Source: Tolypothrix carrinoi HA7290-LM1
Lineage (GTDB): Bacteria > Cyanobacteriota > Cyanobacteriia > Cyanobacteriales > Nostocaceae
Length of the DNA stretch: 28,435 bases
NCBI GenBank assembly: GCA_019358935.1
Contig: JAHHIK010000106.1
Coordinates: forward strand, 1 to 28,435
Reading direction: 5' to 3'
Shown: positions 62 through 20,931 of the stretch, piece after piece
Layout of the letters: every line of letters starts with the position of its first letter
Position numbering within the stretch: the stretch's first letter is position 1
Notes under the pieces: generated by a model
Databases searched by the model: none
Seen by the model: the letters and a program-made list of their open reading frames with translations, nothing else
Told to the model about the DNA's origin: nothing
Made by a program: the position numbers and the translations under genes

Positions 62-119
62 ATTTTATTGCTTTACTGTCCCAAAGCGATCGCCTAAATC
101 AATAACTAGCAACTTAGGT

Positions 120-900
120 TATTAGTTTTAATCTTCAAATCTCCCGCATCCCTTGTTGAGTTTGGCTGTGCGGAAGCAAACAAGCCACTAACAGACCGAC
201 CATCGGCGCTTATACCAATCAGTTGCACGTCTTGAGCATCAACGGTCAAATTTCCCCCCTTGCCCTTACCAGAAGTACTAGCATTCACCTGTGCCCCATC
301 TCGCACTAGCAACGTATTAGTTTTAATCTTCAAATCTCCCGCATCCCTTGTTGAGTTTGGCTGTGCGGAAGCAAACAAGCCACTAACAGACCGACCATCG
401 GCGCTTATACCAATCAGTTGCACGTCTTGAGCATCAACGGTCAAATTTCCCCCCTTGCCCGAACCAGAAGTACCAGCACTCACCTGTGCCCCATCTCGTA
501 CTAGCAAGGTATTAGTTTTCATCTTCAAATCTCCCGCATCCCCTGTTGAGTTTGGCTGTGCGGAAGCCAACAAGCCACTGGGAAACCGACTATCAGCGCC
601 TGTCCCAATCAGTTGTACTTCTTTGGCATCAACGGTCAAATTTCCCCCCTTGCCCGAACCAGATGTAGTAGCACTCACCTGTGCCCCATCTCGCACTAGC
701 AAGGTATTAGTTTTAATCGTCAAATCTCCCGCATCCCCTGTTGAGTTTGGCTGTGCGGAAGTAATTAAGCCACTGCCAGCCCGACTATTAGCGCCTGTCC
801 CAATCAGTTGTACGTCTTGGGCATCAACGGTCAAATTTCCCGCCTTGCCCTTACCAAATGTAGCAGCACTGACCTGTGCCCCACCCGAAATTTGCAACGT
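120..900. repeat. Four tandem 195-bp (65-aa) coding repeats in the FHA gene
   Basis: ATTAGTTTT recurs at 121, 316, 511 and 706 (period 195); 120-265 and 315-460 appear identical. Confidence 0.9.
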
Positions 901-1956
901 GCTAGCACTGATACTGACATTGCCTCCCTGTCCGCTTGCTTCTGCTAGCACCTGATTACCAATGGAACTTCTATTGTTAAGATTAATTACTCCCGTTGCA
1001 TTAACCGAAATATTTCCCGCCTTACTATTATCTGAACCCAGTCCTCTCTCTATCCCTGCAAACAGGAAACTCCTTCCTGTCATTTCTAAATTCCGGGCAT
1101 TAACCGCGATACTACCACTATCGCCAGCAGCCACATATACAAGAGCGCCATTGCTAAGGGACACATTACTTCTTTGTACACTATCGGGAAAACTCAAACT
1201 CAGATTATTACCATCCCCATTCAATCCAATAGTTCCCGCACCAGAAGACCCACCTAACTCGACTCGCCCACCAGAAGCAAACAATCTTCCACCATTCATA
1301 TTGATATCACCGCCTACCAGCAGTAAACTCCTGCCATTTGGCACACGTAAGCCGGTAACTGAGTTATTTTGGATAGATGCGGCACGAATTTGGTTAAATA
1401 GTAAAGCGGAAGGATTGACCGTCAGCAGGGATGAAGAAGTTTCTGGATTTGAAGCACTGAAAAAACCTTGATTGCCAAAGCCGATCGCATTAGCTGTCGT
1501 CCCTACAAATGAACCTTTGACATCCAGTCTGGCATTACGTCCAAATATAATTCCCTCAGGATTTATCAAAAACAGGTTGGCATTGCCCAATACACCCAGC
1601 CTTCCTAAAATATTAGAGGCGTTACCCCCCGTCACTCGGCTCAAAATGTTCTCAATGCCAGTAGGATTGGTAAAATAGGCTCCTCGTCCTTGATCAATGT
1701 TGAATTCCTGAAAACTGTGAAAGAGGTTAGCTCCTCGAATTGCCCCACCATCAATGCGATCGCTGTTGATACCATTGATATCAACGTTAGGTATCACAAC
1801 AGAACTTTCAGCACCTAAGCTATTATCGGGTATCGGCTTTAGCTGGGCTAATGCACAATTCCCAAAAAAAGCGAATGTCTGCGACACGGCTGCGCCGATC
1901 GCACACAAGCTGGCAATACCTAAGAACCCCCCACCCCGATTATTTATCCTGGACAT
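120..1956 (-). pseudogene. Filamentous haemagglutinin N-terminal (TPS) domain exoprotein, interrupted by IS982 (ORF reads through to a stop at 106 inside the IS end)
   Basis: Signal peptide (..NCALAQ), TPS motifs NLFHSFQEF, ILSRVTGG and NLFLINPEGIIFG, then 65-aa GNLTVDA/GDL.IKT beta-helix repeats. The repeat breaks mid-unit (KTN|NLSC*), and the GRGGLP/IVEA.GW C-terminus seen in the paralogue at 16639 is missing. Confidence 0.85.
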
Positions 1957-2076
1957 TGCACCCCTCCAAACCTAGCAGTTACTGGTGGTCGAAGAAACCT
2001 CTACTAATTCTCAGTTTCAGAGGTGAGAGTTTATGCAAAACCTTGATTTTCTTTACAAAAATTCATTAATAAACTG

Positions 2077-3488: not shown

Positions 3489-3599
3489 GATCCCCCCGCC
3501 TGTGGCGACCCCCTTTTAAAGGGGGTTGGGGAACATAGCCCCCCTTTTTAAGGGGGTTGGGGAACATAGCCCCCCTTTTTAAGGGGGGTTGGGGGGATC
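3489..3599. repeat. MITE-like palindromic element with three internal C-run/TTTTAA/G-run hairpins
   Basis: Ends GATCCCCCC (3489-3497) and GGGGGGATC (3591-3599) are perfect inverted repeats. The internal hairpins recur with a period of about 31 nt, separated by TTGGGGAACATAG. Confidence 0.8.
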
Positions 3600-3644
3600 T
3601 GCAAAGAATAAACATCACTAACTGACAAGTATTGCTTTAATGCC

Positions 3645-5620: not shown

Positions 5621-5634
5621 ATTTTACCTCAAAA

Positions 5635-5935
5635 TTGTTAGTTGGTGGGTGTTAGTTGTTAGTTGGTGGGTGTTAGTTGTTAGTTGTTAGTTGTTAGTTG
5701 TTAGTAGGGAGTTAGGAGTTTGGAGTTAGGAGTTGCGAGTAGAAAGTTAGGAGTTAGGAGTTAGGAATTAGGAATTAGGAATTAGGTAGTTAAGAATTAT
5801 TACTCTCCTTGTCTCCTTGTCTCCCTTGTCTCCTTGTCCTCCTTGTCCCCTTGTCCTCCTTGTCCTCCTTGTCCTCCTTGTCTCCCTTGTCCTCCATCCC
5901 CCCATCCCCCCATCCCCCTACTCCCCACTCCCCAT
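5635..5935. repeat. Composite short-tandem-repeat tract (STRR-type heptamers plus 8/9-mers)
   Basis: (TTGTTAG)n at 5635-5705, (GGAGTTA/GGAATTA)n to about 5790, (CTCCTTGTC/CTCCCTTGT)n at 5803-5893, (CCCCCCAT)n and CCCCACT to 5935. It fills the whole intergenic region and the last codons of the upstream gene. Confidence 0.92.
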
Positions 5936-8536
5936 ACCTGGAAATGTGAACTTTAAAGAGCAAGCATCGCTGACCAGAGGTAGCAAAACTTTTCCGTTGG
6001 ACAGCTTCAGGTCAAACTGCATATTCTTGTTTCCACTTTCGACTTCCACAAGTGCAGGTAAACTCTTGGAGTCTCCGCTAAAGTTGCTTTTGTGTGTCCA
6101 TACTCTCAGTTCCTTTTCGTGCTTGGTTGGTAAGCGGAAGATGGCATAACGCAGGGACGAAAGTGATGGAATTTCCACAGTGGCAGACTTAATATGTTGC
6201 TCACCCTCGGCATATCCCAACCGCACCTCTGCCATCTTCGGTTGTCCACCAGCAGCGATCGCGAAGACGGATTGCCCTCCTGGGTACTGTCGTAGCTCTA
6301 CTACTACACGGTTCGTGAAAGCTCCATAGCGTTTCATGACAAGAGTCGCTAAAAGCGATAGCAAGGCAATGCACAATGCACCGATCCGCGCTACAGGATT
6401 TTCCCAGATGAACAGACCGTGGAGGAGCAGAATCCCTAAATAGAGACTGTATATACCGACACTGAAAACCGGATGATTCAGAATCTCCAAAACCACTCCG
6501 GGCACGAGTTCGCCCTTGCGCCGACTGGAAACTAACAAAAGAATTGGGAAAATACCGCCAACTAGGGAGTTACCGAGTACACCAGCAAATGCCAGTATAC
6601 TAGTAAAGGATTGCGTACCAGCAAGCAAAAGCCACTCAGTTAGTAGGAAGACTAACACTAACGGGCTGATGGATAGCAAGAAACGACGCTGTTTCAATAG
6701 GGTTGCCCAAAACTGTTGTGTCAGCGCTTGCATATCAAGCTTATTAGTCTGACTTTGATTTTTAGGTGCAACACTAGCTACATCTGCCCTCAAATCTCCT
6801 TCGTAGGTTAGGAGCATTGGTGAGGTCAGTTGCAGACACGCATTATCTTCATTAGCCGATCGCACTTCTAGAGTCAGACGAGTATTCCACTTGTCCAATG
6901 GAAACTGCCCAAATAGCTCTTTAATGTCCCAACGCTGAGTAACTGTTATCTCTTGATGGTAAACTTTGCCGCTCGACTGGACATCTAAGCGAAACTTTGG
7001 CGCTTGTTCTGACAATCCCAAGTAGGTTATACCAATATGGGGAACACAACTGGGGTTGCCACAGGGGTGCAATATCAATGTTAAGAGCTTGCGAGGCAAC
7101 ATCAAGATCGGTCGCGCTCTTGCAGGCAACCATTCCCTAGCTAAGTTGAGCAGGAGACTGGAACTACGCAGCCAAGCCATTCCCAACAAAAGGATGATTA
7201 AGACTGCTCCCAAAACTCTGACGATGGAACCAACCTCAACAGCCAGTGGTTCCAGGACGGTGCCTGACTGCCCAACTAGTAACTGCGGTGCGATCGCTCC
7301 GTTGACTGCCAACACCCAAATGCAAAACAGCACAGTTAAAAAAGCAGTTCCTGCCACGCTACCCCAAATCAGTGAGGAAGCGCTCTTGTCACGGGGGAGT
7401 ATCAATTTGCCACATTCACCCACATACACATGTCCGAAGTAAAGCATCAAGCTAACACCGAGAATCCGCTGTAACATCCAAGGTTGGAAAGGATGACCAT
7501 CCAAAAAAGGTAAGTTGACATATAAAAGGTTGTCGAGTTCTACATGGCGAAATGCTAGCAATGACAGGATGAGGAGCAAACTAACGTTGATGGCTGCAAG
7601 CAATACCATCACCGCAACCGTGAAGTTAAGCGATGTCTGCGACAGCAGGTATAATCCAGCGAAGAAAAGCAACACGGCACACAGTGCTGCTGGTATGTGT
7701 GTAAAGTTTGCCATAGTCGTTGACAAACCGATGTAGCAAGCCAAGGCTATGAGAAAAACACGGATACTTACGGCGACAGAGAATATAAATGAGCCAGCAT
7801 ATCCTAAGTAGTTGGATACTAATTGTTTGATAAAGACATTGCCGTAACGAAAGTCACCACTACGACTAACAGCTTCAGCCATGCAAGCCATAGTTAGTAT
7901 GTTAATGGTGCCGATGATGACCAGAAAGGCAACAGTAACCAAGGGACCAACATCGGCTACAGCAATGGGCAAGGCTAAGAAAGCTTGGGGAAGACCTAGA
8001 GCAACGGTTACTGCATAGGCAAGCCAGAAAGGTGGCATTTCCTCCAGTCGTTGCGCGATCGCACTACTCTTCCAGCGCATTTGTTCGATTAGTGGCAGCT
8101 TAGATGCAAAGATTTTTTCTAGCTGTGTTCTGTACAAGCGCGAGTAACTCACCTGTACCGCTTTCTCATCCAAACCCAAAGCTGCCCGGATGTTAGGTAC
8201 TGCTTGATAGGTAAAGGTGTATTTTTGGCTGAGAGCGTGGGCAATGGCGGCTTTTAGTCTAGGGTTTTCCGGTAGGAGAAGTGTCCATTGTCGGGCGTAG
8301 CGTTCGAGGTGTTGGATGGTAGGGTGGAGTGGTGGCGCATTCAAGAAAGCAAAGGCTTCTAGGAAAGCTAAATCGCGCTCCGACGCAGCTTGCTCGGTAA
8401 GGGAAAATTCCACACGCGATCGCGCTACTATCTGCGCTGTTCGACTCTCAATCAAAAACAGCAAAGTATTCGCTCGTTTCGCTGGTAAACCCGCTAATAC
8501 TTCCTCACGCGATATCAGTTCATCATTGGATGACAT
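5918..8536 (-). CDS. Large multi-pass membrane protein, amino-acid permease (APC/aromatic amino acid transporter)-like, with soluble N-terminal, internal and C-terminal domains
   Basis: About 9 hydrophobic segments, a roughly 150-aa hydrophilic insert, then about 4 more segments. The TM1-like ALGLPQAFLALPIAVADVG resembles IGAGILALP...G of Trp/Tyr permeases. Start placed at ATG 8536 (MSSNDE, AGGTGA upstream) rather than TTG 8557. Confidence 0.75.
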   Translation of the reverse strand: MSSNDELISREEVLAGLPAKRANTLLFLIESRTAQIVARSRVEFSLTEQAASERDLAFLEAFAFLNAPPLHPTIQHLERYARQWTLLLPENPRLKAAIAHALSQKYTFTYQAVPNIRAALGLDEKAVQVSYSRLYRTQLEKIFASKLPLIEQMRWKSSAIAQRLEEMPPFWLAYAVTVALGLPQAFLALPIAVADVGPLVTVAFLVIIGTINILTMACMAEAVSRSGDFRYGNVFIKQLVSNYLGYAGSFIFSVAVSIRVFLIALACYIGLSTTMANFTHIPAALCAVLLFFAGLYLLSQTSLNFTVAVMVLLAAINVSLLLILSLLAFRHVELDNLLYVNLPFLDGHPFQPWMLQRILGVSLMLYFGHVYVGECGKLILPRDKSASSLIWGSVAGTAFLTVLFCIWVLAVNGAIAPQLLVGQSGTVLEPLAVEVGSIVRVLGAVLIILLLGMAWLRSSSLLLNLAREWLPARARPILMLPRKLLTLILHPCGNPSCVPHIGITYLGLSEQAPKFRLDVQSSGKVYHQEITVTQRWDIKELFGQFPLDKWNTRLTLEVRSANEDNACLQLTSPMLLTYEGDLRADVASVAPKNQSQTNKLDMQALTQQFWATLLKQRRFLLSISPLVLVFLLTEWLLLAGTQSFTSILAFAGVLGNSLVGGIFPILLLVSSRRKGELVPGVVLEILNHPVFSVGIYSLYLGILLLHGLFIWENPVARIGALCIALLSLLATLVMKRYGAFTNRVVVELRQYPGGQSVFAIAAGGQPKMAEVRLGYAEGEQHIKSATVEIPSLSSLRYAIFRLPTKHEKELRVWTHKSNFSGDSKSLPALVEVESGNKNMQFDLKLSNGKVLLPLVSDACSLKFTFPGMGSGE

Positions 8537-8920
8537 ATTAATCACCTGTAAAATCAAAGTTTTTCGGACTTACGCGACTCAAAGCTGGTTTTTGATCGCT
8601 ACAGAAAAGGTTCAGTCTTCGTCATTGCCTGATAAGAAATCAAGCATTGTTCCGTAATAAATAACTATAAGAACTACTACGGTTCTTGCTGCTATCTCCA
8701 GATAGGACATTTGTTTAGCAGCAACAGATGAGTGCTTGTGTCAGGATTGGGGTAATGAAAACCATAATTGTTCTGTTTCTTCGTATTTGATAGTGATAGC
8801 GCTGTTAAGTAGATTTTCTGCTTATTACTGTCGGGCTTTATTAATTGCCGTATAGTGTGGAACTCGTCAAATATTACAATGCACATTTTGGTTAATTTGT
8901 ATAGTGGGTAACTCTTGGTT

Positions 8921-10485: not shown

Positions 10486-11448
10486 TCACTCCCACAGCAA
10501 CACAGAAGGAAGTGATTCTGGATACGCCAACCTCAGTAGTTCATAACCGATGCCGGCGGTGCCTTGAAAGAAACCAGGATTGTAAACATCTCCGGGAAGT
10601 TCGGGAAACAGGTAAAAAGCACCGACTTGCTTTGCTCTTGCGACAAGCCATGCCGCTTGTTTTTGGACAGTATTCCAAAGTTCCGGATGCGACAGCTTAG
10701 AAGTTGCTAGCAAAAGTACCTCCATCCTGCCAAAGTTACCGCAGCAGAGATGGTCGAGGTTCTGTAAACCAAACTGTTGAGTTGTGTTGATAGCGGCTGC
10801 AATTTCTTGCCGAATTTCTGGAGTATCGAGAATTTCTAGACCCCCCAAACGACCTAAACCAATGCCAGGAGCGCCGTGACACCAACTGGTCATAAATGTT
10901 GGTTTATTCTCCCTTACGTCTTGCCAATTTCCGGTGCTGGGGGAAAATAAACTGCGTTCGTAGGCGATCGCTTCTTCTGCTGCTTCCAGAAAAACTGTTT
11001 CTTGCGTGATTTTATACAATCGCAGTAAAGCGTAGGCAATGCCCGCAGCACCATGAGAAAATCCTGTTGCTAACTTACCTTCTAAAGTTGCCCAAGCTCT
11101 AAATCCAGAATCGCTCTTGGTGCGGTTAATCAGTAGGTGATAACCTAAGGCAGTAGCTCGATCTAGAATTGCTGGATCTGATGAAGCTTGGTATAAACTT
11201 AGTAATCCCAGTATTGCCCCTGCCGAGCCAGCGATTGTGTCAAATTGGCGATCGCTTGCAATACTTTCCTGAGTTATTAACAATGCTCCCTGGCTGGCAA
11301 TATCTAGAAGCTGCGGTTCATTCAAAAACTGACTAATTCTAACTAAGGTATAAACGATAGACCCTAATCCAGTGGCTCCACCGATACCGATTTGCTTAGT
11401 AAATTTACGCTGAGAATTTGGGTCTGTGTCCTGCGTCGGTTTGCTCAA
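10486..11448 (-). pseudogene. lanM: 3' fragment of a class II lanthipeptide synthetase LanM (LanC-like cyclase domain only)
   Basis: LanC motifs GSAG, GFSHGAAGI, SWCHGAPGIG, HLCCGNFG and PGFFQGTAGIGYELLR...LPSVLLWE (typical LanM C-terminus). It begins at a TTG with no clear RBS, an in-frame TGA lies 6 codons upstream, and the dehydratase domain is absent. Confidence 0.85.
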
Positions 11449-11505: not shown

Positions 11506-11583
11506 ATACTGTTGGTTTCGCATAAAATTCCCGGTATAACCGCGAGAGAAAAATAGAGATTCACTTTTGCTTATTTTTCAGGC

Positions 11584-12249
11584 ATGAAGTCTCAAATGAA
11601 TCATCCCCAGACAGATGAACTAGATTCTTATCTACTACAACTAGCTACAGAAGCCCAAGCTAACCCACCGCGCTCTGGAGTCAGACGACTTGCTTTAACA
11701 AAATTAATTCATGAGATTGTGCGCTCTGGCAGGCTTTGCCATCCACAAAAAGGTCAATTTACACCTCAGTTTTATGAAGATATTTATGATGAGGCACGCC
11801 AGGAACTTTTGCTTTATATTTGTGAAAATATTGACAAATACGATGCAAAACGCGGTTCCGTCATGGCATGGGTGAATGTTCTTTTGCAGCGGCGATTTTT
11901 TAGAGATGCTATTAAAAAAATCCAGACTCAGCAGAATGTAATAAAAATAACTGATGCCGATCCGGATAATCTTCCTGCCCCACAAGAAGAACCAAAAGAC
12001 CTAGCAGAAGTTCTAAAAAAATGTATAGAATCAGACCCAGAAGGCATTTTCAAAAATGAACACGTAGAGAAATGTCCTCAAGCTAACTTTCAAGCAGTGG
12101 CAATGCGACGAATGTCTGGAAAATCTTGGAAAGAGATTTCCGTAGAATTTGCGATTAAAGTTCCTACAGTCAGCAGCTTTTATTACCGATGCGTAAATAA
12201 TTTCTCTTTAAAGCTGAAAGAATACTGTGACAACGAGGATATAAATTAA
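11584..12249 (+). CDS. Sigma-70-family (ECF/HetZ-like) factor
   Basis: Region-2-like YDEARQELLLYICENIDKYDAKRGSVMAWVN and region-4 HTH SWKEISVEFAIKVPTVSSFYYR; directly upstream of a DUF1822 gene, a common cyanobacterial pairing. Confidence 0.8.
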   Translation: MKSQMNHPQTDELDSYLLQLATEAQANPPRSGVRRLALTKLIHEIVRSGRLCHPQKGQFTPQFYEDIYDEARQELLLYICENIDKYDAKRGSVMAWVNVLLQRRFFRDAIKKIQTQQNVIKITDADPDNLPAPQEEPKDLAEVLKKCIESDPEGIFKNEHVEKCPQANFQAVAMRRMSGKSWKEISVEFAIKVPTVSSFYYRCVNNFSLKLKEYCDNEDIN

Positions 12250-12264
12250 GCACCAGAGGAAAAA

Positions 12265-13215
12265 ATGATGAGACAATCAGAATCTTTGAAATTTACCGTC
12301 CCGATAAGTAGTGAGCTTCATTCTTTAGCAAAACAATTTCGCCTTTATCATCGCAATTCAAAAAAAGCTAAACAAGTTTATTTTAATACTTTGGCGGTAT
12401 CTGCCGTAAATTTTTACCTGCGTTGCATGGGAATTAAAACTTCTTGGTCAGCTAGTTCTAGTTGTAACCCAGTAATACAAACTATGATGGATGTTGCCGA
12501 TTTAGAAATCATCGGTTTGGGAAAGTTAGAGTGTCGTCCGGTGCTGTCAGACGAAAAGGTGGTTTATATTCCACCAGAAGTTTGGTCAGACAGAATTGGC
12601 TATGTAGCTGTACAATTTGACCAATCGCTAAGAGAAGCGACTCTGCTAGGATTTAGCAAAACGGCTCAAAATGGTGAGATACTTATAAATCAGTTGCGAT
12701 CGCTTGAAGAATTCATTTTACAACTGAGCGAAATTCCCCAAAAAGTTAAACAGCCAATTCACCTCAGCCAGTGGTTATCTAATATTGTTGACGCTGGTTG
12801 GCAAACGGTAGAATCGCTTTTGACGCAACAATCCGAACTAGCTTTTAGATTTCGCTCACCTGAACAAATTTTAGCTCAAAACTCAGAAAATTCTCCTATT
12901 AATGTCCAAAAAGCCACATTGCTGGACTTAGGAGGACAATCAGAAAGTAAACCGATCGCTTTAGTAGTTGGACTGATACCTCTGTCTGAACAAGAAATAA
13001 ACATAATAGTGAAAGTTTGTCCTGTCAATGGTCAAAACTATCTGCCAGAAGAACTTGAATTAATGGTGTTGGATGATTTGGGAATATCTGTAATGCAAGC
13101 TACTGCAAGAAATACCAAGAGTATTCAATTAAACTTTAGTAGCGAATTTGGAGAACGTTTTAGCATAAAAATGACATTAGGTGATGTCAACTTTACAGAA
13201 GTTTTTCTAGTTTGA
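12265..13215 (+). CDS. DUF1822 family protein
   Basis: Characteristic KQVYFNTLAVSAVNFYL, VADLEI..LGKLECRPV, PPEVWSDRIGYVAVQ, HLSQWL...DAGWQTVE and C-terminal GERFSI...FTEVF; AGAGG RBS. Confidence 0.9.
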   Translation: MMRQSESLKFTVPISSELHSLAKQFRLYHRNSKKAKQVYFNTLAVSAVNFYLRCMGIKTSWSASSSCNPVIQTMMDVADLEIIGLGKLECRPVLSDEKVVYIPPEVWSDRIGYVAVQFDQSLREATLLGFSKTAQNGEILINQLRSLEEFILQLSEIPQKVKQPIHLSQWLSNIVDAGWQTVESLLTQQSELAFRFRSPEQILAQNSENSPINVQKATLLDLGGQSESKPIALVVGLIPLSEQEINIIVKVCPVNGQNYLPEELELMVLDDLGISVMQATARNTKSIQLNFSSEFGERFSIKMTLGDVNFTEVFLV

Positions 13216-13304
13216 AATTCGTCGCGCAAAAATATATTATGGTTGACAAAGGTTGTAAAATTTCAGTATTTGATTAACTAAAATTCCAAATTTCAAATAG
13301 GTTT

Positions 13305-15602
13305 ATGGCAAAGTTAGTTGTTATGAAACTAGATGGTAATTTGTCAGACACGGGGTGTCGGGTGACACTGGAAATTGGAGCCGAAAATGCTCGCCCAAAA
13401 ATAGAAGTTTCTGGCAATTTACCTGCATCCCCCGACTTGGCAAATTACCAGCACCAGTGGCAAGATAACTATCGCAGTTTGGGGATAACTAGCCGAATTA
13501 AACCCCAAGAAATTATTTACGATGGCTGTATCAAAAGTCGAATAAAAAAATGTAGTGAGTCAGCCAAAGTTTTGAGCGATCGCTTGCAAATATTACTTGA
13601 GTCTCCGGCATTTCGCTGCATTAACAACACATTACGTGAAGAATTAAACCGAGAGGAAATAATTCGGCTATTAATTCGCACTGATGATAGCGAATTACAA
13701 AGGCTTCCTTGGCATTTGTGGGATTTTTTTAACAGATACTCACAAGCCGAATTTGCCCTGACTGCAACAGTTTCGGAAACACCTGCAACACCACCATCAC
13801 GTAAACCGAAAGTCAGAATTTTAGCGATTTTGGGAAATAGTACTGGAATTGATGTTCAAAAAGACCGTCAATTGTTAGAAAGTTTACCATCATCCGAAAT
13901 AGTTTTTTTAGTAGAACCACAACGCAAAAAGCTCAACAATTATTTGTGGCAGCAATGGGATATTTTGTTTTTCGCGGGTCATAGTGAAAGTGCTGATGGG
14001 AAAGGTAAGATTTATATTAATAAAATTGAGAGTTTAACAATTGACGATTTAGAGAATGGTTTAAAAAGCGCGATCGCACAAGGTTTGCAACTGGCAATTT
14101 TTAACTCTTGTGATGGTTTGGGATTAGCATCGCAACTTATTTCTTTACATATTCCGCAAATGATTGTCATGCGGGAACCAGTACCGGATGAAGTCGCACA
14201 GGAATTTTTAAAGCATTTTCTCATAGCTTTTTCTAGTGGCAAATCTCTTTATCTAGCATCGCGAGAAGCAAGAGAAAAACTGCAAGGTTTGGAAGATAGA
14301 TTTCCTAATGCAACTTGGTTGCCAGTAATTTTCCAGAACCCTGGAGTTGTACCACCAACTTGGAAAAAGTTATCTTTTCGGCATATTGATTTTAAACGTA
14401 TTTTTCTGACCATACTTGTGGTGAGTGTGCTTGTTACATCAAGTGTAATGGGAGTGCGTTATCTGGGGATGTTGCAACAAAGCGAATTGCAAGCTTATGA
14501 CCATTTCATGCAAGTGCGATCGCATAACGAAAGGTCAGATCCGCGCTTGTTAATAGTTACTGTTGGGGAGGCTGATATTTATTATCAGAACCAAATGGGG
14601 ATGAAATCGAAAGGATCGCTTTCCGATCAAGCACTCGCTCAACTGTTGCAAAAATTGAAGCAGTATCAACCAACAACTATTGGTATAGATATTTATCGTG
14701 ATTTTCCTGTAGACCCCGATTATCCAAATTTAGTTACTAGTCTACAGCAAGACTCGCGCATTTTTGCAGTGTGCAAAGTTTCTGCTGATTCGGATGGTGA
14801 AGCTGATGGCATTCACCCCCCTGATGAAGTTCCGCGATCGCGCCAAAGTTTTAGTGATTTTGTAGCAGACAATGATGAAATTCTTCGTCGTCAATTGTTG
14901 AATTTAACTCCTCCTATAAAATCGCCATGTGCCGCAAAAGATTCTTTTAGTCTTCAGCTTGCACGTCACTATTTACAAGCGAAAAATATCAAAGCTTTTA
15001 TTAATTCTCAGGGATACTTGCAGATTGGTAAGGTTGTCTTTCAGCCATTAAAAGAACACTCTAGCGGTTATCAAAGAATTGATGCATCCGGTTATCAAGT
15101 TTTGCTGAATTATCGTTCTTTGCGTCAAACGGAAAAAATTGCCGAGACAGTATCTCTTAAAGATGTTTTGACTGACCAAATCAAACCTGAATTAATCGAG
15201 TCATTAAAGAATCGTATCGTTATGATTGGCGTTACTGCCCCAAGCGCTAATGCTGATTATTGGAAAACCCCGTCCAAAGAAAAGAAAATACAAGGACTCT
15301 TGGTGCAAGCAAATATGGTAAGCCATATTCTCAGTGCCGTTGAGGATCGCAGACCTTTGTTTTGGTGGTGGTCTGGGTGGGTGGAAGCACTTTGGGTCTT
15401 TGTATGGTCATTGGTGGGAGGTATTATAGCATGGCGTTGCTCGAAGCCGCTGTATCTTGGGCTGGCGATCGCAACAGCGTTGTTAACATTATTTGGGGTC
15501 TGCTTTGGCATTTTTACACTAGCGGGGTGGATACCATTTGTGCCGCCTGTATTGACATTGGTGTTGACGGCTACGGCTGTTATGTGGATATTACGTAATT
15601 AA
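13305..15602 (+). CDS. CHAT (caspase-like protease) - TM - CHASE2 - 3TM receptor
   Basis: CHAT motifs LQRLPWHLW, LFFAGHS (His), IFNSCDG (Cys), MREPVPD and WLPVIFQNP; a TM helix; CHASE2 motifs ELQAYD, DPRLLIV, IGIDIYRD, D.D...RR and IVMIG; three C-terminal TM helices and no further domain. Confidence 0.92.
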   Translation: MAKLVVMKLDGNLSDTGCRVTLEIGAENARPKIEVSGNLPASPDLANYQHQWQDNYRSLGITSRIKPQEIIYDGCIKSRIKKCSESAKVLSDRLQILLESPAFRCINNTLREELNREEIIRLLIRTDDSELQRLPWHLWDFFNRYSQAEFALTATVSETPATPPSRKPKVRILAILGNSTGIDVQKDRQLLESLPSSEIVFLVEPQRKKLNNYLWQQWDILFFAGHSESADGKGKIYINKIESLTIDDLENGLKSAIAQGLQLAIFNSCDGLGLASQLISLHIPQMIVMREPVPDEVAQEFLKHFLIAFSSGKSLYLASREAREKLQGLEDRFPNATWLPVIFQNPGVVPPTWKKLSFRHIDFKRIFLTILVVSVLVTSSVMGVRYLGMLQQSELQAYDHFMQVRSHNERSDPRLLIVTVGEADIYYQNQMGMKSKGSLSDQALAQLLQKLKQYQPTTIGIDIYRDFPVDPDYPNLVTSLQQDSRIFAVCKVSADSDGEADGIHPPDEVPRSRQSFSDFVADNDEILRRQLLNLTPPIKSPCAAKDSFSLQLARHYLQAKNIKAFINSQGYLQIGKVVFQPLKEHSSGYQRIDASGYQVLLNYRSLRQTEKIAETVSLKDVLTDQIKPELIESLKNRIVMIGVTAPSANADYWKTPSKEKKIQGLLVQANMVSHILSAVEDRRPLFWWWSGWVEALWVFVWSLVGGIIAWRCSKPLYLGLAIATALLTLFGVCFGIFTLAGWIPFVPPVLTLVLTATAVMWILRN

Positions 15603-15665
15603 ACTTGTGATGCTGGCTTATCGTCTTTATTTGGGAAATAACATCAGATATTTTGACACTGAATT

Positions 15666-16574
15666 ATGAGCAAGAATAATCTACCTCAAAACCAGATGAA
15701 ACTAGTACTTCACCACGGGAACTCGTCAGATTCCCGACTTCTTGAAGAAGTCGGGAATCTCGGAGCGATTCATCAACCTATAAAAGCGCTGAAGCGCTTA
15801 CTACGAAGCGTTATTTTTTTGATACTGCTTGCGAGTTACCCAGCACTAGTAAATGCACAAGTTACGCAACCTGTCAAGAAGGTTGTCCCAAACAGACAAA
15901 ACCGCCTTGCGGAATTGAAATTTCCCCGTAATGGCGCACCGATTGGTCGCCGTCAAGGAGGGGCAAGGCGTACTGGAACTGAATGCCCAGACTTGAAAAC
16001 GCCTATGACTGCGTTGGTGCCTGGTGAAGAAAGTGCCGACGAATCGAAATCTTTCTTAGCATTTACAGTGTCTGAGTATCCAACTTTTTGGGTTTATGTG
16101 CCACAGTTACCGAGCAATGTTCGCTCTGGAGAGTTTGTGTTTCAGGATGAACAAGGTAACGATGTCTACCGGATGCCTTTGACGCTGCCTGAAAAGTCTG
16201 GTGCGATCGGCATTAGTTTACCACAAAATCCGCAATATGCTTTAAAGACAAACAATAAGTATCAATGGTACTTTAAGGTTTATTGTGGTGCAGCGCAAAA
16301 CACATCTGAGTATTTTTATGTGAAAGCATGGGTGCAACGAGTAGCGCTCACGAGCCAGCTTGAAAGTCAGTTAAAAACGGCGAAATCAGGGGAATATATT
16401 ACTTATGCTGTTAATTATATTTGGCAGGATGCTGTAACTAATTTAGCTGATATACGCCGGACTAATTCAGGCGATCGCGTTTTGAGCGATGATTGGATTA
16501 GTTTGTTAACATCTGTTGGCTTGTCAGAATTTGCAAGGGCGCCCGTTGTTTGGCGTTATGGTTTTGAAAGATAA
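15666..16574 (+). CDS. DUF928 family protein (secreted or periplasmic)
   Basis: GAPIGRRQGGARR, MTALVP, PTFWVYVP, YQWYFKVYC, IWQDAVTNLA and DWISLLTSVGL; hydrophobic signal ending VNAQ. Alternative start at ATG 15696. Confidence 0.9.
   Translation: MSKNNLPQNQMKLVLHHGNSSDSRLLEEVGNLGAIHQPIKALKRLLRSVIFLILLASYPALVNAQVTQPVKKVVPNRQNRLAELKFPRNGAPIGRRQGGARRTGTECPDLKTPMTALVPGEESADESKSFLAFTVSEYPTFWVYVPQLPSNVRSGEFVFQDEQGNDVYRMPLTLPEKSGAIGISLPQNPQYALKTNNKYQWYFKVYCGAAQNTSEYFYVKAWVQRVALTSQLESQLKTAKSGEYITYAVNYIWQDAVTNLADIRRTNSGDRVLSDDWISLLTSVGLSEFARAPVVWRYGFER
15728..15760. repeat. 33-bp perfect palindromic dispersed repeat inside the DUF928 coding region
   Basis: AGATTCCCGACTTCTT-G-AAGAAGTCGGGAATCT, 16-bp arms; its length is a multiple of 3. 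Confidence 0.9.
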
Positions 16575-16638: not shown

Positions 16639-19600
16639 ATGTCTGGGATGATTCGATACTGGCAAAGATGGGCATTAGGAAAATTGTTAGTGGTGGGGGG
16701 AGCGATCGCCTTTTCGGGAAATTGTGCATTAGCTCAAATTATCCCCGATGCCACTTTGCCTAATAATTCCAGCGTCACTCCCTCTGGTAACACCAGTATC
16801 ATTGAGGGAGGAACTAAAGCTGGTGGCAACTTGTTTCACAGCTTCCAAGAGTTTTCTGTTCCCACTGGGGGTATCGCTTACTTCAACAACGCCTCAGAGA
16901 TTCAGAACATTATTAGCCGGGTGACAGGTTCGTCTATCTCGAACATTGACGGTTTGCTCAAAGCTAATGGTAGTGCCAACCTGTTTCTACTCAATCCCAA
17001 TGGTATTATTTTTGGTCCGAATGCGAGGTTAGACATCGGTGGCTCATTTGTTGGTAGTACAGCTAGCAGCCTAAAGTTTGCTGATGGTACCCAGTTCAGC
17101 TCAACTGCGCCCCAAACAACTCCATTGCTAACTGTCAGTGTACCGCTTGGTCTGCAACTAGGACCAACTGCGGGAAGCATCGTAAATCAATCCCGATCAA
17201 CCAATATTAGTGGCGAACCTGTTGGTTTACAGGTACAGCCAGGTAAAACCTTGGCGCTTGTGGGCGGCAATGTTAGATTAGAAGGCGCGACAATGCTAGC
17301 TCCAGGTGGTCGAGTGGAGTTGGGAGGATTAGCAGCAGCGGGAACGGTAGAGTTTGGTGATAGCAACAATTTGCGTTTGAGTTTCCCAGATAGCATTGCA
17401 CGAGCAGATGTAGTACTTAGCAATGGAACTTTTGTTGGCGTCGCCGCAGGGGGTGGTGGCAGCATTGCAATCAATGCCCGGAATATAGATGTTCTGGGAG
17501 GAAGTTATCTTTTTGCTGGGATCGACTCTGGTTTGGGATCGGGAACTGCTGTTGCAGGAGATGTTACGCTCAATGCGACAGGGACAATAGCACTCAAGCA
17601 GTCAAGCAATATTATCAACGAAGTCAGATATAATGCTACTGGTAATAGTGGAAATATTGATATCAAAGCTGAATCACTTGACCTTGAAAACGCTTTTTTG
17701 AGTGCCAGCACATTTGGAGTGGGAAATGGCGGCACTATCAATATCAATGCCCGCGACAGGGTCTCCTTTACCGGACGTGGGGCATACAGCCAAGTAGAAC
17801 CAGATGCCGTAGGTAATAGTGGCGGCATCAATATTACGGCTGGGTCGCTCTCTTTGACGAATAGTGAGCTGTTAGCCCACACCTTTGGAAAGGGAAATGC
17901 AGGTACTATCAACCTCAATGCCCGCGATATCATCGACTTGGATCGGAGTGTGGCATTGAGCGAAGTGCGACGAAAAGAAGCTTTTGGTAACAGTGGCGGC
18001 ATCAATATTACCACTGGAGCTCTTTCTCTTACCAATGGCGCTGTTCTAGCGACTAGCACCTTTGGGCAAGGAAATGGGGGCACTATCAAGATCAATGCTC
18101 GCGATAGCGTCTCCTTTGCTGGGAGTACAGCCTTCAGTCAAGTAGAACCAAAAGCTTTTGGTAACAGTGGCGGCATTGATATCACGACTGGATCTCTTTC
18201 GTTGACGAATAGTGCCCTGCTAGCCCAAACCAGAGGAAAGGGAAATGCAGGTACTATCAACATCAATGCCCGCGACACCGTTTCCTTTGATCGGAGTGCG
18301 GCATTGAGCGAAGTGATAGCAAATCAAGCTTTTGGTAACAGTGGCGGTATTAATATCACCACTGGGTCACTCTTTCTAACAAATGGGGCTGTCCTGGCTA
18401 CTAGTACTTTTGGGCAAGGAAATGGGGGCACTATCAAGATCAATGCTCGCGATAGCGTCTCCTTTGCAGGGAGTACAGCCTTCAGTCAAGTAGAACCAAA
18501 AGCTTTTGGTAACAGTGGCGGCATTGATATCACGACTGGATCTCTTTCGTTGACGAATAGTGAGTTGTTAGCCCAGACCAGAGGAAACGGAAATGCAGGT
18601 ACTATTAATATCAATGCCCGCGACACCATCGACTTGGATCGGAGTCGGGCATTGAGCGAAGTGTTCGTAAATAAAGCTGTAGGTAACAGTGGCGGCATCA
18701 ATATTACCACTGGAGCGCTGTCGGCAAATGATGCTGTCCTGGCTACTAGCACCTTTGGGCAAGGAAATGGGGGCACTATCAAGATCAATGCTCGCGATAG
18801 CGTCTCCTTTGCAGGGAGTACAGCCTTCAGTCAAGTAGAACCAAAAGCTTTTGGTAACAGTGGCGGCATTGATATCACGACTGGATCTCTTTCGTTGACG
18901 AATAGTGAGTTGTTAGCCCAGACCAGAGGAAACGGAAATGCAGGTACTATTAATATCAATGCCCGCGACACCATCGACTTGGATCGGAGTCGGGCATTGA
19001 GCGAAGTGTTCGTAAATAAAGCTGTAGGTAACAGTGGCGGCATCAATATTACCACTGGAGCGCTGTCGGCAAATGATGCTGTCCTGGCTACTAGCACCTT
19101 TGGGCAAGGAAATGGGGGCACTATCAAGATCAATGCTCGCGATAGCGTCTCCTTTGCAGGGAGTACAGCCTTCAGTCAAGTAGAACCAAAAGCTTTTGGT
19201 AACAGTGGCGGCATTGATATCACGACTGGATCTCTTTCGTTGACGAATAGTGCCCTGCTAGCCCACACCTTTGGAAAGGGAAATGCAGGCACTATCAACC
19301 TCAATGCCCGCGATACCATCGACTTGGATCGGAGTGTGGTATTGAGCGAAGTGCAGCGAAATCCAGCTTTTGGTAACAGTGGCGGCATTAATATTACCAC
19401 TGGGTCACTTTTTCTAAGAAATGGGGCTGTCCTAGCGACTAGCACTTTTGGAATGGGAAATGGCGGCACTATCAATATCAATGCCCGCGATGTCGTCTCC
19501 TTTGATGGGAGTAAAGCATACAGCCAAGTGAACAATAGAGCCACAGGTAATAGTGGCGGCATCGATATCACGACAGGGTCACTTTTTGTCACTAATGGTG

Positions 19601-20931
19601 CTGAATTATTTACCAGCACTCATGGAAAGGGAAATGCAGGTAATGTGACCATTAATGCCCGCGACAGGATTTCCCTTGATGGGGGGGAGTGGGAACAGAG
19701 TGGTTTCGTCTCTAGTAAAATTCAGAGTCGGATAGAAGACAATCAGATAATAGAAGAGCGAGGACAGGTGCAGGGAGGTAATATCGAGATCGTTACAGAG
19801 TCGCTCTCAGCCACCAATGGCGCTTACCTAAGTGCTAGTACAGACGCAGTAGGAAATGCAGGTAATTTTATCATTAATGCCCGCGATATTTACTTTGCTG
19901 GGAAGGGTGAAGATAAACTTCCCAGCGGTGTCTATAGCCGAGTGCTAAATGATGCCAAAGGGCAGGGAGGTAATATCCAGATCGTTACAGAGTCGCTCTC
20001 CCTAACTGATGATGCTATTATCTCTGCTGTGCTGCTGCAAAAAGCAGAGGGGCAGGGAGGTAATATCCAGATCACAGCAAACTCGCTCTCACTTACCAAT
20101 GACGCTGAAGTAAATGTAAGCAGTGAAGGAAGAGGAAATGCAGGCAACTTAAACATCAACGCTAACTTTATTCGCCTGGAAAACCAAGGAAAACTCAGAG
20201 CTTCTACAGCAGCAGGAACTGGCGGAAACATAACGCTCTCAAACTTAGATTTATTACTAATGCGCGATCGCAGTCTAATATCTGCTGAAGCTCTCAACGA
20301 TGCAAATGGCGGCAATATCACAATCAATGCCAAAGATGGCTTTATCGTCGCTGTACCAAAAGAAAACAGCGACATCGTTGCAAACGCCTCCAGAGGAAAT
20401 GGAGGTAATATTAACATCACCACCTCTGGCATCTACGGACTAGAGAATCGCTCTGGGCAGGCTACAGATTTAAACATAAGTGAGATCAACGCCAGTTCAG
20501 AATTTGGTACGGACGGCACTATAGAAATCAACACGCTCGAAATTGACCCCAACAGTGGCTTAGTTAACTTACCCACCGTACCACTTGACACCGAAGTGTC
20601 CCAAGTTTGTCAACCGCGTACAGCAGAAAATCAAAGCAGTTTTATCATCACTGGACGCGGTGGTTTACCACCCAACCCCAGGACTGAACTTCTCACTCCT
20701 GACGCCGTTCAAGTAGATTGGGTAACGCTCAAACCAAGCACACAAAACCGCTCTAATTCATCTGTTAGCAGCAAACGAACTACAGCCACACCAGAAAAAA
20801 TCGTAGAAGCTACTGGGTGGGTGCGAAACGAAAAGGGAGAGGTTGTTCTTACAGCCAATCCGCCCACCGTCACACCTCATGGTTCATGGCAGAAACCCGC
20901 AGATTGCAGTGCAGTTCAATCAAATAAATAG
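16639..20931 (+). CDS. Filamentous haemagglutinin N-terminal (TPS) domain exoprotein (TpsA-like, 'S-layer family')
   Basis: GAGGAG RBS, signal peptide ..NCALAQ, NLFHSFQEFSV, IISRVTG, NLFLLNPNGIIFG, GN.G.I.I.A repeats, and the cyanobacterial C-terminus SSFIITGRGGLPPNP...IVEATGW...C. Confidence 0.93.
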   Translation: MSGMIRYWQRWALGKLLVVGGAIAFSGNCALAQIIPDATLPNNSSVTPSGNTSIIEGGTKAGGNLFHSFQEFSVPTGGIAYFNNASEIQNIISRVTGSSISNIDGLLKANGSANLFLLNPNGIIFGPNARLDIGGSFVGSTASSLKFADGTQFSSTAPQTTPLLTVSVPLGLQLGPTAGSIVNQSRSTNISGEPVGLQVQPGKTLALVGGNVRLEGATMLAPGGRVELGGLAAAGTVEFGDSNNLRLSFPDSIARADVVLSNGTFVGVAAGGGGSIAINARNIDVLGGSYLFAGIDSGLGSGTAVAGDVTLNATGTIALKQSSNIINEVRYNATGNSGNIDIKAESLDLENAFLSASTFGVGNGGTININARDRVSFTGRGAYSQVEPDAVGNSGGINITAGSLSLTNSELLAHTFGKGNAGTINLNARDIIDLDRSVALSEVRRKEAFGNSGGINITTGALSLTNGAVLATSTFGQGNGGTIKINARDSVSFAGSTAFSQVEPKAFGNSGGIDITTGSLSLTNSALLAQTRGKGNAGTININARDTVSFDRSAALSEVIANQAFGNSGGINITTGSLFLTNGAVLATSTFGQGNGGTIKINARDSVSFAGSTAFSQVEPKAFGNSGGIDITTGSLSLTNSELLAQTRGNGNAGTININARDTIDLDRSRALSEVFVNKAVGNSGGINITTGALSANDAVLATSTFGQGNGGTIKINARDSVSFAGSTAFSQVEPKAFGNSGGIDITTGSLSLTNSELLAQTRGNGNAGTININARDTIDLDRSRALSEVFVNKAVGNSGGINITTGALSANDAVLATSTFGQGNGGTIKINARDSVSFAGSTAFSQVEPKAFGNSGGIDITTGSLSLTNSALLAHTFGKGNAGTINLNARDTIDLDRSVVLSEVQRNPAFGNSGGINITTGSLFLRNGAVLATSTFGMGNGGTININARDVVSFDGSKAYSQVNNRATGNSGGIDITTGSLFVTNGAELFTSTHGKGNAGNVTINARDRISLDGGEWEQSGFVSSKIQSRIEDNQIIEERGQVQGGNIEIVTESLSATNGAYLSASTDAVGNAGNFIINARDIYFAGKGEDKLPSGVYSRVLNDAKGQGGNIQIVTESLSLTDDAIISAVLLQKAEGQGGNIQITANSLSLTNDAEVNVSSEGRGNAGNLNINANFIRLENQGKLRASTAAGTGGNITLSNLDLLLMRDRSLISAEALNDANGGNITINAKDGFIVAVPKENSDIVANASRGNGGNINITTSGIYGLENRSGQATDLNISEINASSEFGTDGTIEINTLEIDPNSGLVNLPTVPLDTEVSQVCQPRTAENQSSFIITGRGGLPPNPRTELLTPDAVQVDWVTLKPSTQNRSNSSVSSKRTTATPEKIVEATGWVRNEKGEVVLTANPPTVTPHGSWQKPADCSAVQSNK
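18409..19252. repeat. Apparently identical tandem 345-bp (115-aa) coding repeats (about 2.4 copies) within a longer degenerate array (about 17700-19660)
   Basis: Opposite-strand ORFs 18486-18788 and 18831-19133, and 18568-18834 and 18913-19179, translate identically at offset 345. By eye, identity runs from 18409/18754 to 18907/19252. Confidence 0.9.

Follow-up and report, generated by a model that had tools for sequence, protein, structure and literature searches.

A four-gene cassette of Tolypothrix carrinoi HA7290-LM1 appears to encode a protease-gated ECF sigma factor switch, in which a sensor-protease would cut an inhibitor and free a sigma factor for genes of secreted proteins. We put the probability of this reading at about 55%. 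It builds on genes, a catalytic dyad, synteny and motif conservation that were observed, and on protein folds and a sigma-DUF1822 interface that were predicted. The cassette lies in a contig of 28,435 nucleotides, which was analyzed whole and is referred to here as the window. As the first-pass annotation had described, four closely spaced, co-directional open reading frames, all on the forward strand with intergenic gaps of 15, 89 and 63 nt, encode in order a sigma factor, a DUF1822 protein, a receptor with CHAT and CHASE2 domains and a DUF928 protein (Table 1).

Table 1. Positions of the cassette genes, their domains and associated candidate sites in the window
Feature	Positions	Strand	Basis
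TpsA-like gene, predicted sigma target; ends near contig edge, possibly truncated by assembly	106..1956	-	Pfam, motif
Second candidate sigma-promoter copy, ending 52 nt before the TpsA gene 106..1956	2009..2040	-	Motif search
Candidate promoter of the cassette sigma, TTT[CTG]GC[AG]TAAA - N15-17 - [CT]GAGA, with its end 36 nt upstream of the sigma ATG	11516..11547	+	Motif search
Divergent ECF-type sigma factor, 221 aa	11584..12249	+	Weak profile matches below cut-off; best PDB matches ECF sigmas
Sigma2 region-2.2-like helix (about aa 64-100) and sigma4 HTH (about aa 169-205)	within 11584..12249	+	
DUF1822 protein, 316 aa, predicted anti-sigma and protease substrate	12265..13215	+	Pfam DUF1822 (E 4e-66), model, synteny, complex
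DUF1822 N-domain, aa 10-156, PD-(D/E)xK-nuclease-like fold, conserved D79, E89-C90-R91	12292..12732	+	Model, fold search, alignment
Conserved motif A-F-R-F-R197|S198 in the linker, at the start of disordered 198-211; putative site of CHAT cleavage	12841..12858	+	Model, conservation
DUF1822 C-domain, aa 214-315, Ig-like beta-sandwich, putative protease docking site	12904..13209	+	Model, fold searches, mirror-distance test
Receptor, 765 aa: EACC2-like N-domain, CHAT (H226, C269), TM, periplasmic CHASE2, three C-terminal TMs	13305..15602	+	Pfam, dyad, hydropathy
DUF928, 302 aa, exported Ig-like and helical protein, MtxA-like fold, CHASE2 partner	15666..16574	+	Pfam (E 9e-54), fold search, neighborhood
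TpsA-like filamentous exoprotein, 64 nt after DUF928; optional neighbor, not core	16639..20931	+	Pfam, synteny

A synteny survey had been proposed as a check, and in 50 loci of other genomes the four genes form a conserved group. DUF1822 lies directly 3' of the sigma gene in 40 of these loci and within 8 kb in 44, and the gene order is therefore far beyond chance; the gene for the CHAT protein comes directly after in 35 of the 44. Counting against the model, the CHAT gene is absent from the 600 nt after DUF1822 in the other 9, and no EACC2/CHAT gene was found in the 1.5-kb flanks of 18 of 21 loci with a long-type DUF1822. DUF1822 is not confined to single copies: eight DUF1822-like genes and one fragment were counted in the same genome, and filamentous cyanobacteria have up to 21 matches per genome. 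No Pfam family of a Cas effector or cyclic-oligoadenylate sensor was found among the 16 window proteins scanned, and membership in the type III CRISPR-associated protease systems was rejected on this ground.

The gene set is not new. It is the neighborhood of EACC2-caspase, ECF sigma factor and DUF1822 catalogued computationally by Kaur et al. (eLife 2021; PMC8195603). The text and supplement passages of that paper drawn on here describe a constant N-terminal domain, a caspase and a variable sensor, with CHASE2 named, and one supplement row reads 'EACC2+CASPASE+CHASE2+TM+TM -> TM+beta_rich+TPRs', the second gene of which probably is DUF928. The caspase dyad, the variable CHASE2/TM sensor and the neighboring sigma and DUF1822 genes of that system are all present in the cassette. 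The same passages call DUF1822 a TPR protein and propose activation by autopeptidase action, whereas here DUF1822 is modeled as nuclease-like plus Ig-like and a role as anti-sigma factor and substrate is proposed. They contain no cut site, promoter or regulon; measured against them, a candidate cut site, promoter and targets are what is new here, for a set known from computation only.

Pfam domain analysis of the receptor revealed a CHAT domain (E 2e-15, aa 106-329) and a CHASE2 domain (E 5e-60). Both catalytic residues of the CHAT domain are in place, His226 (nt 13980) and Cys269 (nt 14109). Of 47 relatives, 45 retain the dyad; in the other two, the CHAT domain lies beyond the 420 aa aligned. 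Hydropathy agrees with the earlier view that CHAT is the only cytoplasmic output of the receptor, since it shows one transmembrane segment at about 361-390 and three hydrophobic segments between 691 and 764, just before the C-terminal residue 765. The constant N-terminal domain of about 100 aa before the caspase fold was found by its own profile in nearly all relatives and was tentatively assigned to EACC2 by its position and by an architecture that matches text and supplement rows of PMC8195603. The sensor part varies, being CHASE2 in 23 of the 35 loci where the CHAT gene directly follows DUF1822 and otherwise TPR, periplasmic-binding domains and others. A PDB sequence search with the EACC2-CHAT region returned nothing significant.

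The signal peptide attributed to DUF928 is visible by eye as a hydrophobic stretch (44-64) ending ...VNA|Q, and the true start may be later, since two relatives begin at the equivalent of Met11. DUF928 lies within 3 kb of CHASE2 in 46 of 84 cases and is probably a partner of CHASE2. The proposed periplasmic co-receptor gains from this association but is not special to the cassette: DUF928 would be a partner of CHASE2 receptors in general. Its model resembles MtxA of magnetotactic bacteria (PDB 4z29; Z 9.7, rmsd 4.2, 149 aligned), likewise an exported protein with an Ig plus TPR-like fold, and the gene after mtxA encodes a CHASE2 adenylate cyclase (PMC4439547), much as DUF928 sits beside CHASE2. 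The two proteins share only 9% identity, and the MtxA-linked receptor has a different output domain. ESM Atlas gave only cyanobacterial clusters below 0.9 and without names for DUF928.

The sigma-like gene matches Sigma70_r4_2 (E 4e-4, aa 169-202), SigK (E 5e-7, aa 69-198) and TIGR02937 (E 1.5e-4), and its best PDB matches are the ECF sigmas SigK and SigE (E 0.19-0.48). These weak but consistent matches cover sigma2 and sigma4 without sigma1 or sigma3, as in ECF sigmas, and all profile matches fall below curated cut-offs, which places the putative ECF identity among the weak points of the model. Membership in the HetZ family was rejected: NF037964 matches three other loci and not the cassette sigma gene, and hhalign of the short cassette sigma with long sigma types or HetZ gave probabilities of 0.6% or less.

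In the DUF1822 model (mean pLDDT 82), a flexible linker joins an N-domain with a PD-(D/E)xK-nuclease-like fold to an Ig-like C-domain. This alpha/beta plus beta-sandwich architecture does not fit the TPR label of Kaur et al., and no TPR family occurs among the Pfam matches of 47 members. When DUF1822 was modeled with the sigma factor, as the first-pass annotation had suggested, binding was predicted over the core- and promoter-binding surfaces with a score of 0.86 against 0.12 for the best control; roughly 116 of 157 solved pairs attain the mark used for this score, as do roughly 2 of 215 mismatched ones. At least 87% of contacts recur between runs, the partner pLDDT is 77 or higher, and memory of the partners is unlikely because DUF1822 has no solved relative by sequence. 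All of the confident interface is on the N-domain, which is predicted to lie over sigma2 and sigma4 as an anti-sigma would, masking the region-2.2-like helix (65-81) as well as the recognition helix (193-215) of sigma4. In ECF sigmas, these helices are needed by RNA polymerase and the promoter. From the model, DUF1822 very likely binds the sigma factor and quite likely inhibits it. DUF1822 might instead be a co-activator or chaperone, given that a complex model speaks for binding and not for its effect, and a nuclease fold could bind DNA; the surfaces that are covered argue against this role, which we consider highly improbable.

The N-domain fold raises the further alternative of a working nuclease that the sigma factor restrains, with cleavage unleashing both nuclease and transcription, for example in filament cell death. 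The top fold matches of the N-domain model (aa 32-162) are nucleases: I-Ssp6803I (2ost; Z 8.6, rmsd 3.2, 113 aligned), Hjc (1ob8, Z 8.1, rmsd 3.3, 102 aligned; 1gef, Z 7.3) and D212 (2w8m, Z 6.7), followed by 2wcw (Z 6.6) and, lower, 8q5n and 4esj. Conserved D79 (45 D and 1 E of 46), E89 (46 of 46) and R91 (41 of 46) are not in the listed sigma interface. In the catalytic set as mapped by eye, D79 and E89 are conserved, but Arg91 appears in place of the catalytic Lys and Val45 in place of the helix Glu. None of the 21 long-sigma-type paralogs retains the site. Moreover, the PDDEXK_5 sequence profile does not match the N-domain (34 of 40 shuffles scored as high), and a toxin-fold domain can serve as an anti-sigma, as in CalpT. 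We regard a working nuclease as improbable. PD-(D/E)xK nucleases are not in the Foldseek list for the DUF1822 model, ESM Atlas gave no usable match for the N-domain, and PDB sequence searches with DUF1822 profiles returned nothing significant.

The earlier casting of DUF1822 as an anti-sigma substrate gains some support from the predicted sigma binding and from a conserved linker Arg, but not in its placement of the linker near SEIPQKVKQP. That segment (155-164) is poorly conserved, and the disordered linker of the model is 198-211. At the R197 position, 46 of 55 sequences have Arg and 6 have Lys, amid poorly conserved, gapped flanks. Arg or Lys also occupies this position in all 21 paralogs of the long-sigma type, where D/E/C/R are gone from the N-domain. 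R197|S198, not SEIPQKVKQP, is the likely candidate cut site from conservation and analogy, and we lean slightly toward CHAT cutting DUF1822 there. In a mirror-distance test on 27 triples, CHAT similarity went with that of the C-half of DUF1822 (partial rho 0.41, 0 of 2000 permutations) and not with that of the N-half (0.03, 757 of 2000), and sigma similarity tracked both halves, with the caveat that kin are not independent. This co-divergence would fit binding as well as cutting. In a non-proteolytic switch, the receptor would bind the Ig domain, with the Arg motif as pseudo-substrate, and tether or release the sigma complex uncut; Csx30 indeed binds Csx29 regardless of activation (PMC10028731). 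The dyad kept in 45 of 47 relatives and the catalytic precedent of HetF make such partner switching improbable.

Three characterized systems resemble the proposed switch. In Anabaena PCC 7120, HetF, like the receptor proposed here, is a membrane-anchored cytoplasmic CHAT protease that cuts after Arg, in PatU3 after R117 in TNYR|SPET (PMC9457339). PatU3 is co-transcribed with the ECF-type sigma HetZ and inhibits it (PMC13342950), the role proposed for DUF1822. The corresponding site, mapped by motif, is Arg in all 30 rows of PatU homologs. HetF differs in having periplasmic TPR instead of CHASE2, and HetZ, at about 400 aa with insertions, is unlike the 221-aa cassette sigma and gives no significant profile match. 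Sequence homology between DUF1822 and PatU is not significant: hhalign gave a probability of 1.3% (E 0.04 over 50 C-terminal columns), and the C-halves align no better than column shuffles (7 of 40 reach the score). The common R|S could therefore be convergent or structural. In type III-E Csx29-Csx30-CASP-sigma (PMC10028731), a CHAT protease likewise acts on a two-domain, sigma-binding substrate, with the Csx30 N-domain binding the sigma and the C-domain the protease, and there too cutting alone does not explain sigma release. The trigger, however, is RNA-guided and cytoplasmic, and the cut falls between residues 427 and 429 and not after Arg. In CalpL-CalpT-CalpS (bioRxiv 2024.05.08.593097), cleavage within a loose linker of an anti-sigma with a MazF-like toxin-fold N-domain, followed by its degradation, frees an ECF sigma. 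CalpT is thus, like DUF1822 in the proposed switch, a two-domain anti-sigma with an enzyme/toxin-type N-domain and a linker cut; its Lon-type protease, cA4 trigger and LAA degron have no counterpart at the cassette. Csx30 and Csx29 are absent from the fold and sequence search results, as are CalpT and the HetZ complex from the fold search lists; relationships to the cassette are still conceivable.

Upstream of the sigma genes, an upstream box was found in 17 of 61 regions (shuffles: mean 0.27, maximum 2), the promoter pattern having been derived from the same regions in which it was counted. The strict pattern has five matches in the Tolypothrix genome, two before sigma genes and three before TpsA genes (control, 0). 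Among genomes that have the close sigma subfamily, 10 of 14 contain it, compared with 6 of 47 that lack the subfamily. Counting against it, 12 of the 28 strict matches stand before unrelated genes or before no ORF at all, 9 matches turned up in the control, and the regions upstream of the TpsA genes may be paralogs of one another. As read from sequence, the two-box promoter is probably recognized by the cassette sigma, and the copy before its own gene would imply autoregulation. The earlier suggestion that the downstream genes are targets fits the TpsA genes, which carry the candidate promoter, but probably not the exporter. The latter, an NHLP/RiPP exporter, adjoins the cassette in 1 of 60 loci, the motif was not found in front of it, and it was rejected as a target. 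A TPS gene is present in 12 of 50 loci, and the one next to DUF928 is probably co-transcribed with the cassette. Since the upstream box precedes TpsA in 0 of 15 sigma loci, it is mainly TpsA genes preceded by a promoter of their own that are linked to the sigma. Scans for sigma-70 promoters and terminators gave chance levels (15 versus 18.9 and 11 versus 9.7). TpsA exoproteins as predicted targets also bear on the proposal in section 9 of PMC8195603 of a counter-invader system, in which the receptor-caspase cuts itself, the sigma acts downstream and DUF1822 is not a substrate. In its favor, STAND, WD40 or kinase domains, as are typical of conflict systems, occur in other EACC2-caspases, and autoproteolysis has been proposed for DdvA (PMC11506125). 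The predicted TpsA targets speak against that proposal, which also leaves the conserved linker Arg and the CHAT/C-half co-divergence without explanation, and we judge it unlikely.

In the protease-gated switch that we favor, the DUF1822 N-domain would at rest clamp the sigma over its core-binding helix and sigma4 recognition helix. A periplasmic cue read by CHASE2 and exported DUF928 would be passed across the membrane and activate the CHAT protease, which would dock on the Ig-like C-domain and cut after R197, as conservation and the HetF/PatU3 precedent suggest. Because the candidate cut lies outside the sigma interface of the complex model, the sigma-bound N-fragment probably must be degraded by a housekeeping protease, a step demonstrated for CalpT and suggested for Csx30; the new C-terminal end (...FR) is not an LAA-type degron, which makes release a weak point of the model. 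Freed sigma would then read TTT[CTG]GC[AG]TAAA-N16/17-[CT]GAGA promoters before its own operon and TpsA-type exoprotein genes, and the output would be an envelope or secreted protein under positive feedback.

The literature found by search mentions DUF1822 and DUF928 without an experiment on either. A bolder scheme, which we consider a long shot, is that DUF1822 is a nuclease recruited as an anti-sigma and still cutting, so that a periplasm-triggered, caspase-like cut frees an autoregulated sigma and a nuclease together; the Arg linker plus Ig domain would be a portable caspase-substrate tag, shared by as many as about 20 paralogous switches in one genome, and HetF-PatU-HetZ would be a domesticated cousin. 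For the switch proposed here, C269, R197, D79/E89 and the promoter make the model directly testable, and the candidate promoter would give a reporter for what CHASE2/DUF928 receptors sense. If the model is true, caspase-like proteases would be a general trans-envelope route to sigma factors, beyond CRISPR defense and heterocyst control, and filamentous cyanobacteria would carry many such switches.

Reading the ORFs of the window, which makes up the entire contig C106 of the source genome (G000), recovered the four co-directional genes of the first-pass annotation, with gaps of 15, 89, and 63 nt, and the His and Cys of the CHAT dyad fell exactly where it had placed them. Pfam scores were strong for DUF1822, for CHAT plus CHASE2, and for DUF928 (genes 2, 3, and 4), and gene 1 gave only weak ECF sigma matches below the cut-off; its closest named relative in the genomes scanned was a Tolypothrix record (92%). 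In the receptor a single transmembrane segment follows CHAT, and three hydrophobic segments lie at the extreme C terminus; CHAT is therefore its sole cytoplasmic output, as had been claimed. The cassette core is AT-richer (GC, 0.375 to 0.39) than most flanks (0.44 to 0.50).

Coordinates of the cassette, its flanks, and related loci (window nucleotides unless stated)
Feature	Position	Remark
TpsA gene	106-1956 (-)	
Candidate promoter	2009-2040 (-)	before TpsA gene
Gene group	2122-8557 (-)	cNMP-binding, DUF7005, ParA/MinD-like, unannotated 879-aa membrane protein
LanM lanthipeptide synthetase remnant	10486-11448 (-)	C-terminal part only; aligned from relative's residue 769, 92%
Candidate promoter	11516-11547 (+)	before sigma gene
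Sigma gene	11584-12249 (+)	221 aa
Cassette core	12001-15000	
DUF1822 gene	12265-13215 (+)	316 aa
DUF1822 alpha/beta N-domain	aa 10-156	AlphaFold2 model
DUF1822 Trp-rich segment	aa 165-195	AlphaFold2 model
Candidate CHAT cut R197|S198	12841-12858	A-F-R-F-R197-S, from sequence; just before disordered stretch
DUF1822 disordered stretch	aa 198-211	AlphaFold2 model
DUF1822 Ig-like C-domain	aa 214-315	AlphaFold2 model
CHAT/CHASE2 receptor gene	13305-15602 (+)	765 aa; His226 at 13980, Cys269 at 14109
DUF928 gene	15666-16574 (+)	302 aa
TpsA gene	16639-20931	long near-identical internal repeats, ~17900-19500
NHLP bacteriocin exporter trio	21345-28057 (+)	TIGR03794/03796/03797 above cut-off
L006, second cassette copy	G000 (source genome):C62:7500-17500	74-77% identical
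L007, Ig module locus	G000:C86:25807-28723	
L023, L098, sigma-DUF1822 pair	G029:C1:5227514-5241539	

Of 121 genomes in the phylum, 31 gave matches to a sigma profile (alignment A1). Across all 50 sigma loci outside the source genome, DUF1822 followed sigma directly in 40 and within 8 kb in 44, and in 35 of these 44 a CHAT gene lay no more than 600 nt after DUF1822. CHASE2 was carried by 23 of the 35 adjoining CHAT proteins; the others, where checked, had TPR, periplasmic-binding, or pentapeptide domains instead. DUF928 was present in 21/23 CHASE2 loci compared with 1/12 non-CHASE2 loci. Fifteen selected genomes gave 84 DUF928 matches; 46 of them had a CHASE2 match no more than 3 kb away (~1.1 expected), and just 14 of the 46 had DUF1822 within 8 kb. 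Because of these locus counts and this proximity, the conserved core is sigma-DUF1822-CHAT and DUF928 goes along with CHASE2; joint conservation of the four genes is supported. At L042, L043, L048, and L050, one to three genes, some of 850 to 940 aa (one TpsA), separate sigma from DUF1822, and DUF1822 of L048 has its own upstream promoter box. The short pair at L023/L098 has no adjoining CHAT gene and lies ~12 kb from a patU-like gene. L006 is a second copy of the entire cassette, and the promoter motif stands in front of both its sigma and its TpsA gene.

In the DUF928 model (pLDDT 80) an Ig-like part is combined with a helical one; Cys207 and a Trp-rich core are conserved. The best fold match of DUF928 was MtxA (Z 9.7 over 149 aligned residues; rmsd, 4.2), the next rows scoring 8.0, and in magnetotactic bacteria a CHASE2 cyclase gene comes after mtxA, according to the available part of PMC4439547. 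This fold and neighborhood lend independent, indirect support to DUF928 as a CHASE2 partner.

Consistent with the anti-sigma role first proposed for DUF1822, the modelled sigma-DUF1822 pair is predicted to bind, scoring 0.86 in three runs versus 0.12 for the best control. The score mark was reached by 116/157 solved complexes and 2/215 mismatched pairs, a calibration that applies roughly, since the alignments were our own; ECF/anti-sigma complexes exist among solved structures, and DUF1822 has no solved sequence relative. The runs shared at least 87% of contacts, with partner pLDDT of at least 77, and at the level of modelling the score supports binding. Confident contacts involved only DUF1822 residues 8 to 156, onto sigma 29 to 81, 113 to 144, and 173 to 215, ranges that take in the recognition helix of sigma4 as well as the region-2.2-like helix. 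This predicted placement resembles that of an anti-sigma; beside it, co-activation of sigma by DUF1822 is barely plausible.

The AlphaFold2 model of DUF1822 (mean pLDDT, 82) contains no TPR. When its N-domain was compared structurally with 48,161 solved chains, the best matches were PD-(D/E)xK nucleases: I-Ssp6803I (Z 8.6; rmsd 3.2; 113 aligned), Hjc (Z 8.1 and 7.3), and D212 (Z 6.7). Foldseek picked up the Ig domain of DUF1822 only, and no sequence-profile link of the N-domain to PDDEXK_5 was found. In short-type DUF1822, paired with a short sigma gene, conservation was 46/46 for D79 (D/E), E89, and C90 and 41/46 for R91; by eye, D79...E89-C90-R91 matches the D...E-x-K nuclease site with Lys replaced by Arg. 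All four residues are absent from 21/21 paralogs of the long-sigma type. An active nuclease is very unlikely.

All seven full-length DUF1822 genes of the source genome have a sigma-like gene immediately in front of them; three of these sigma-like genes are of the short type and four of the long type (400 to 520 aa), the latter being called sigma-like from position and appearance alone. One long protein scanned (of L143 to L172; C83, C129, C73, C161, and C131 in the source genome) had no Pfam match. The DUF1822 variants beside such genes often have small residues plus R|S/G in the linker, and their N-domain lacks the acidic site. L007 encodes a 106-aa protein with weak similarity to the C-domain of DUF1822 (E 0.009), a stand-alone Ig module beside a protease; a split EACC2-CHAT-zinc-ribbon-kinase gene comes next.

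Of 55 DUF1822 proteins, nine of them from a set of ten sigma-relative loci, 46 have R and 6 have K at position 197; the next residue is S in 30 cases and G in 8, and the residues after R197 are variable or gapped. R or K also occupies the equivalent position in 21/21 long-type paralogs. HetF cuts PatU3 between R117 and S118 (PMC9457339), PatU3 being an inhibitor of the ECF sigma HetZ (PMC13342950), as the accessible portions of both papers report. For a patU-like gene, identified from its place behind a hetZ-like gene, Arg is retained at the corresponding motif in 30/30 rows; profile-profile alignment of DUF1822 with PatU, with a shuffle control, gave no significant match.

In 27 sigma-DUF1822-CHAT triples (two circularly permuted proteins left out; kin not independent), CHAT similarity tracked the C-half of DUF1822 (partial 0.41; 0/2000 permutations) and not the N-half (0.03; 757/2000), whereas sigma similarity tracked both. 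The layout may be likened to that of Csx30, with the N-domain on sigma and the C-domain on the protease. For Csx30, cutting by itself does not account for sigma release (PMC10028731), and for CalpT a second degradation step was demonstrated (bioRxiv 2024.05.08.593097), each in the part of the source available; unlike CalpT, the C-end that the predicted cut would create (...FR) has no LAA degron. The dyad is intact in 45/47 relatives, both exceptions carrying CHAT beyond the aligned stretch, and switching of partners without catalysis appears quite improbable. Remoter parallels, as far as the available text goes, are DdvA (PMC11506125) and SAVED-CHAT/PCaspase (bioRxiv 2023.06.23.546230); autoproteolysis or defence is an unlikely role, if a somewhat better candidate.

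Alignment of sigma upstream regions revealed two conserved boxes with a drifting spacer. The upstream box occurs in 17/61 of these regions (shuffles: mean 0.27, maximum 2), a partly circular count since the pattern was drawn from the same regions. The strict two-box pattern had five matches in the source genome (control, 0), two before short sigma genes and three before TpsA genes, the one at 2009-2040 of the window among the latter; the upstream box alone precedes 3/25 TpsA genes versus 11/4127 others. In 61 family genomes there were 28 matches (control, 9): 6 sigma, 8 TpsA, 1 TpsB, 1 RTX protein, and 12 others. Minus the source genome and its congener, 20 remained (3, 3, 1, 1, and 12, respectively). 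Genomes with a match made up 10/14 of those with the close sigma subfamily versus 6/47 without, and 7/14 had one besides sigma's own promoter. The idea that downstream genes are sigma targets survives in part: the motif precedes TpsA genes; the TpsA gene at 16639 has none of its own but begins 64 nt after DUF928; and the exporter was rejected, having no promoter motif and adjoining the cassette in 1/60 loci. A TPS gene occurs in just 12/50 sigma loci.

The exporter, an NHLP trio, fits with the upstream LanM remnant and not with the cassette; together with the 2122-8557 genes it looks like a RiPP cluster enclosing the cassette. About 9 kb of a relative, L008 (780-9871), is absent at 11447/11455, so that a deletion brings the remnant up to the sigma promoter region. 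L008 (92 to 95% identical) aligns with the second TpsA gene at both ends only, and the repeat region therefore turns over fast.

We put at roughly 0.55 the probability that a caspase-like CHAT protease, gated by CHASE2/DUF928, would cut the nuclease-fold anti-sigma DUF1822 after R197 and so free an autoregulated ECF sigma, which would in turn switch on genes for TpsA-type exoproteins.

In the portions available, Kaur et al. 2021 (PMC8195603, section 9) describe EACC2 plus caspase proteins with variable C termini, CHASE2 among them, and with ECF sigma and DUF1822 genes as neighbors, and supplement rows place "TM+beta_rich+TPRs" after the CHASE2 form; by our own equation, that protein is probably DUF928. 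PMC5587647 and PMC9679502, as far as available, each name the families in a single passage. Among the matches listed in our literature search, Kaur et al. alone treated EACC2 relevantly; within its reach, DUF1822 was named in two papers, DUF928 in one, and DUF1822 together with CHAT in one. The matches listed since 2022 on CHAT, caspase, anti-sigma, cleavage, and cyanobacteria held no experimental test of the cassette. The cassette is a real, conserved member of a system so far described computationally. Its predicted substrate, cut site, fold, and promoter were not found in the literature searched. The gene set was already in print; these four predictions make a widespread family testable.
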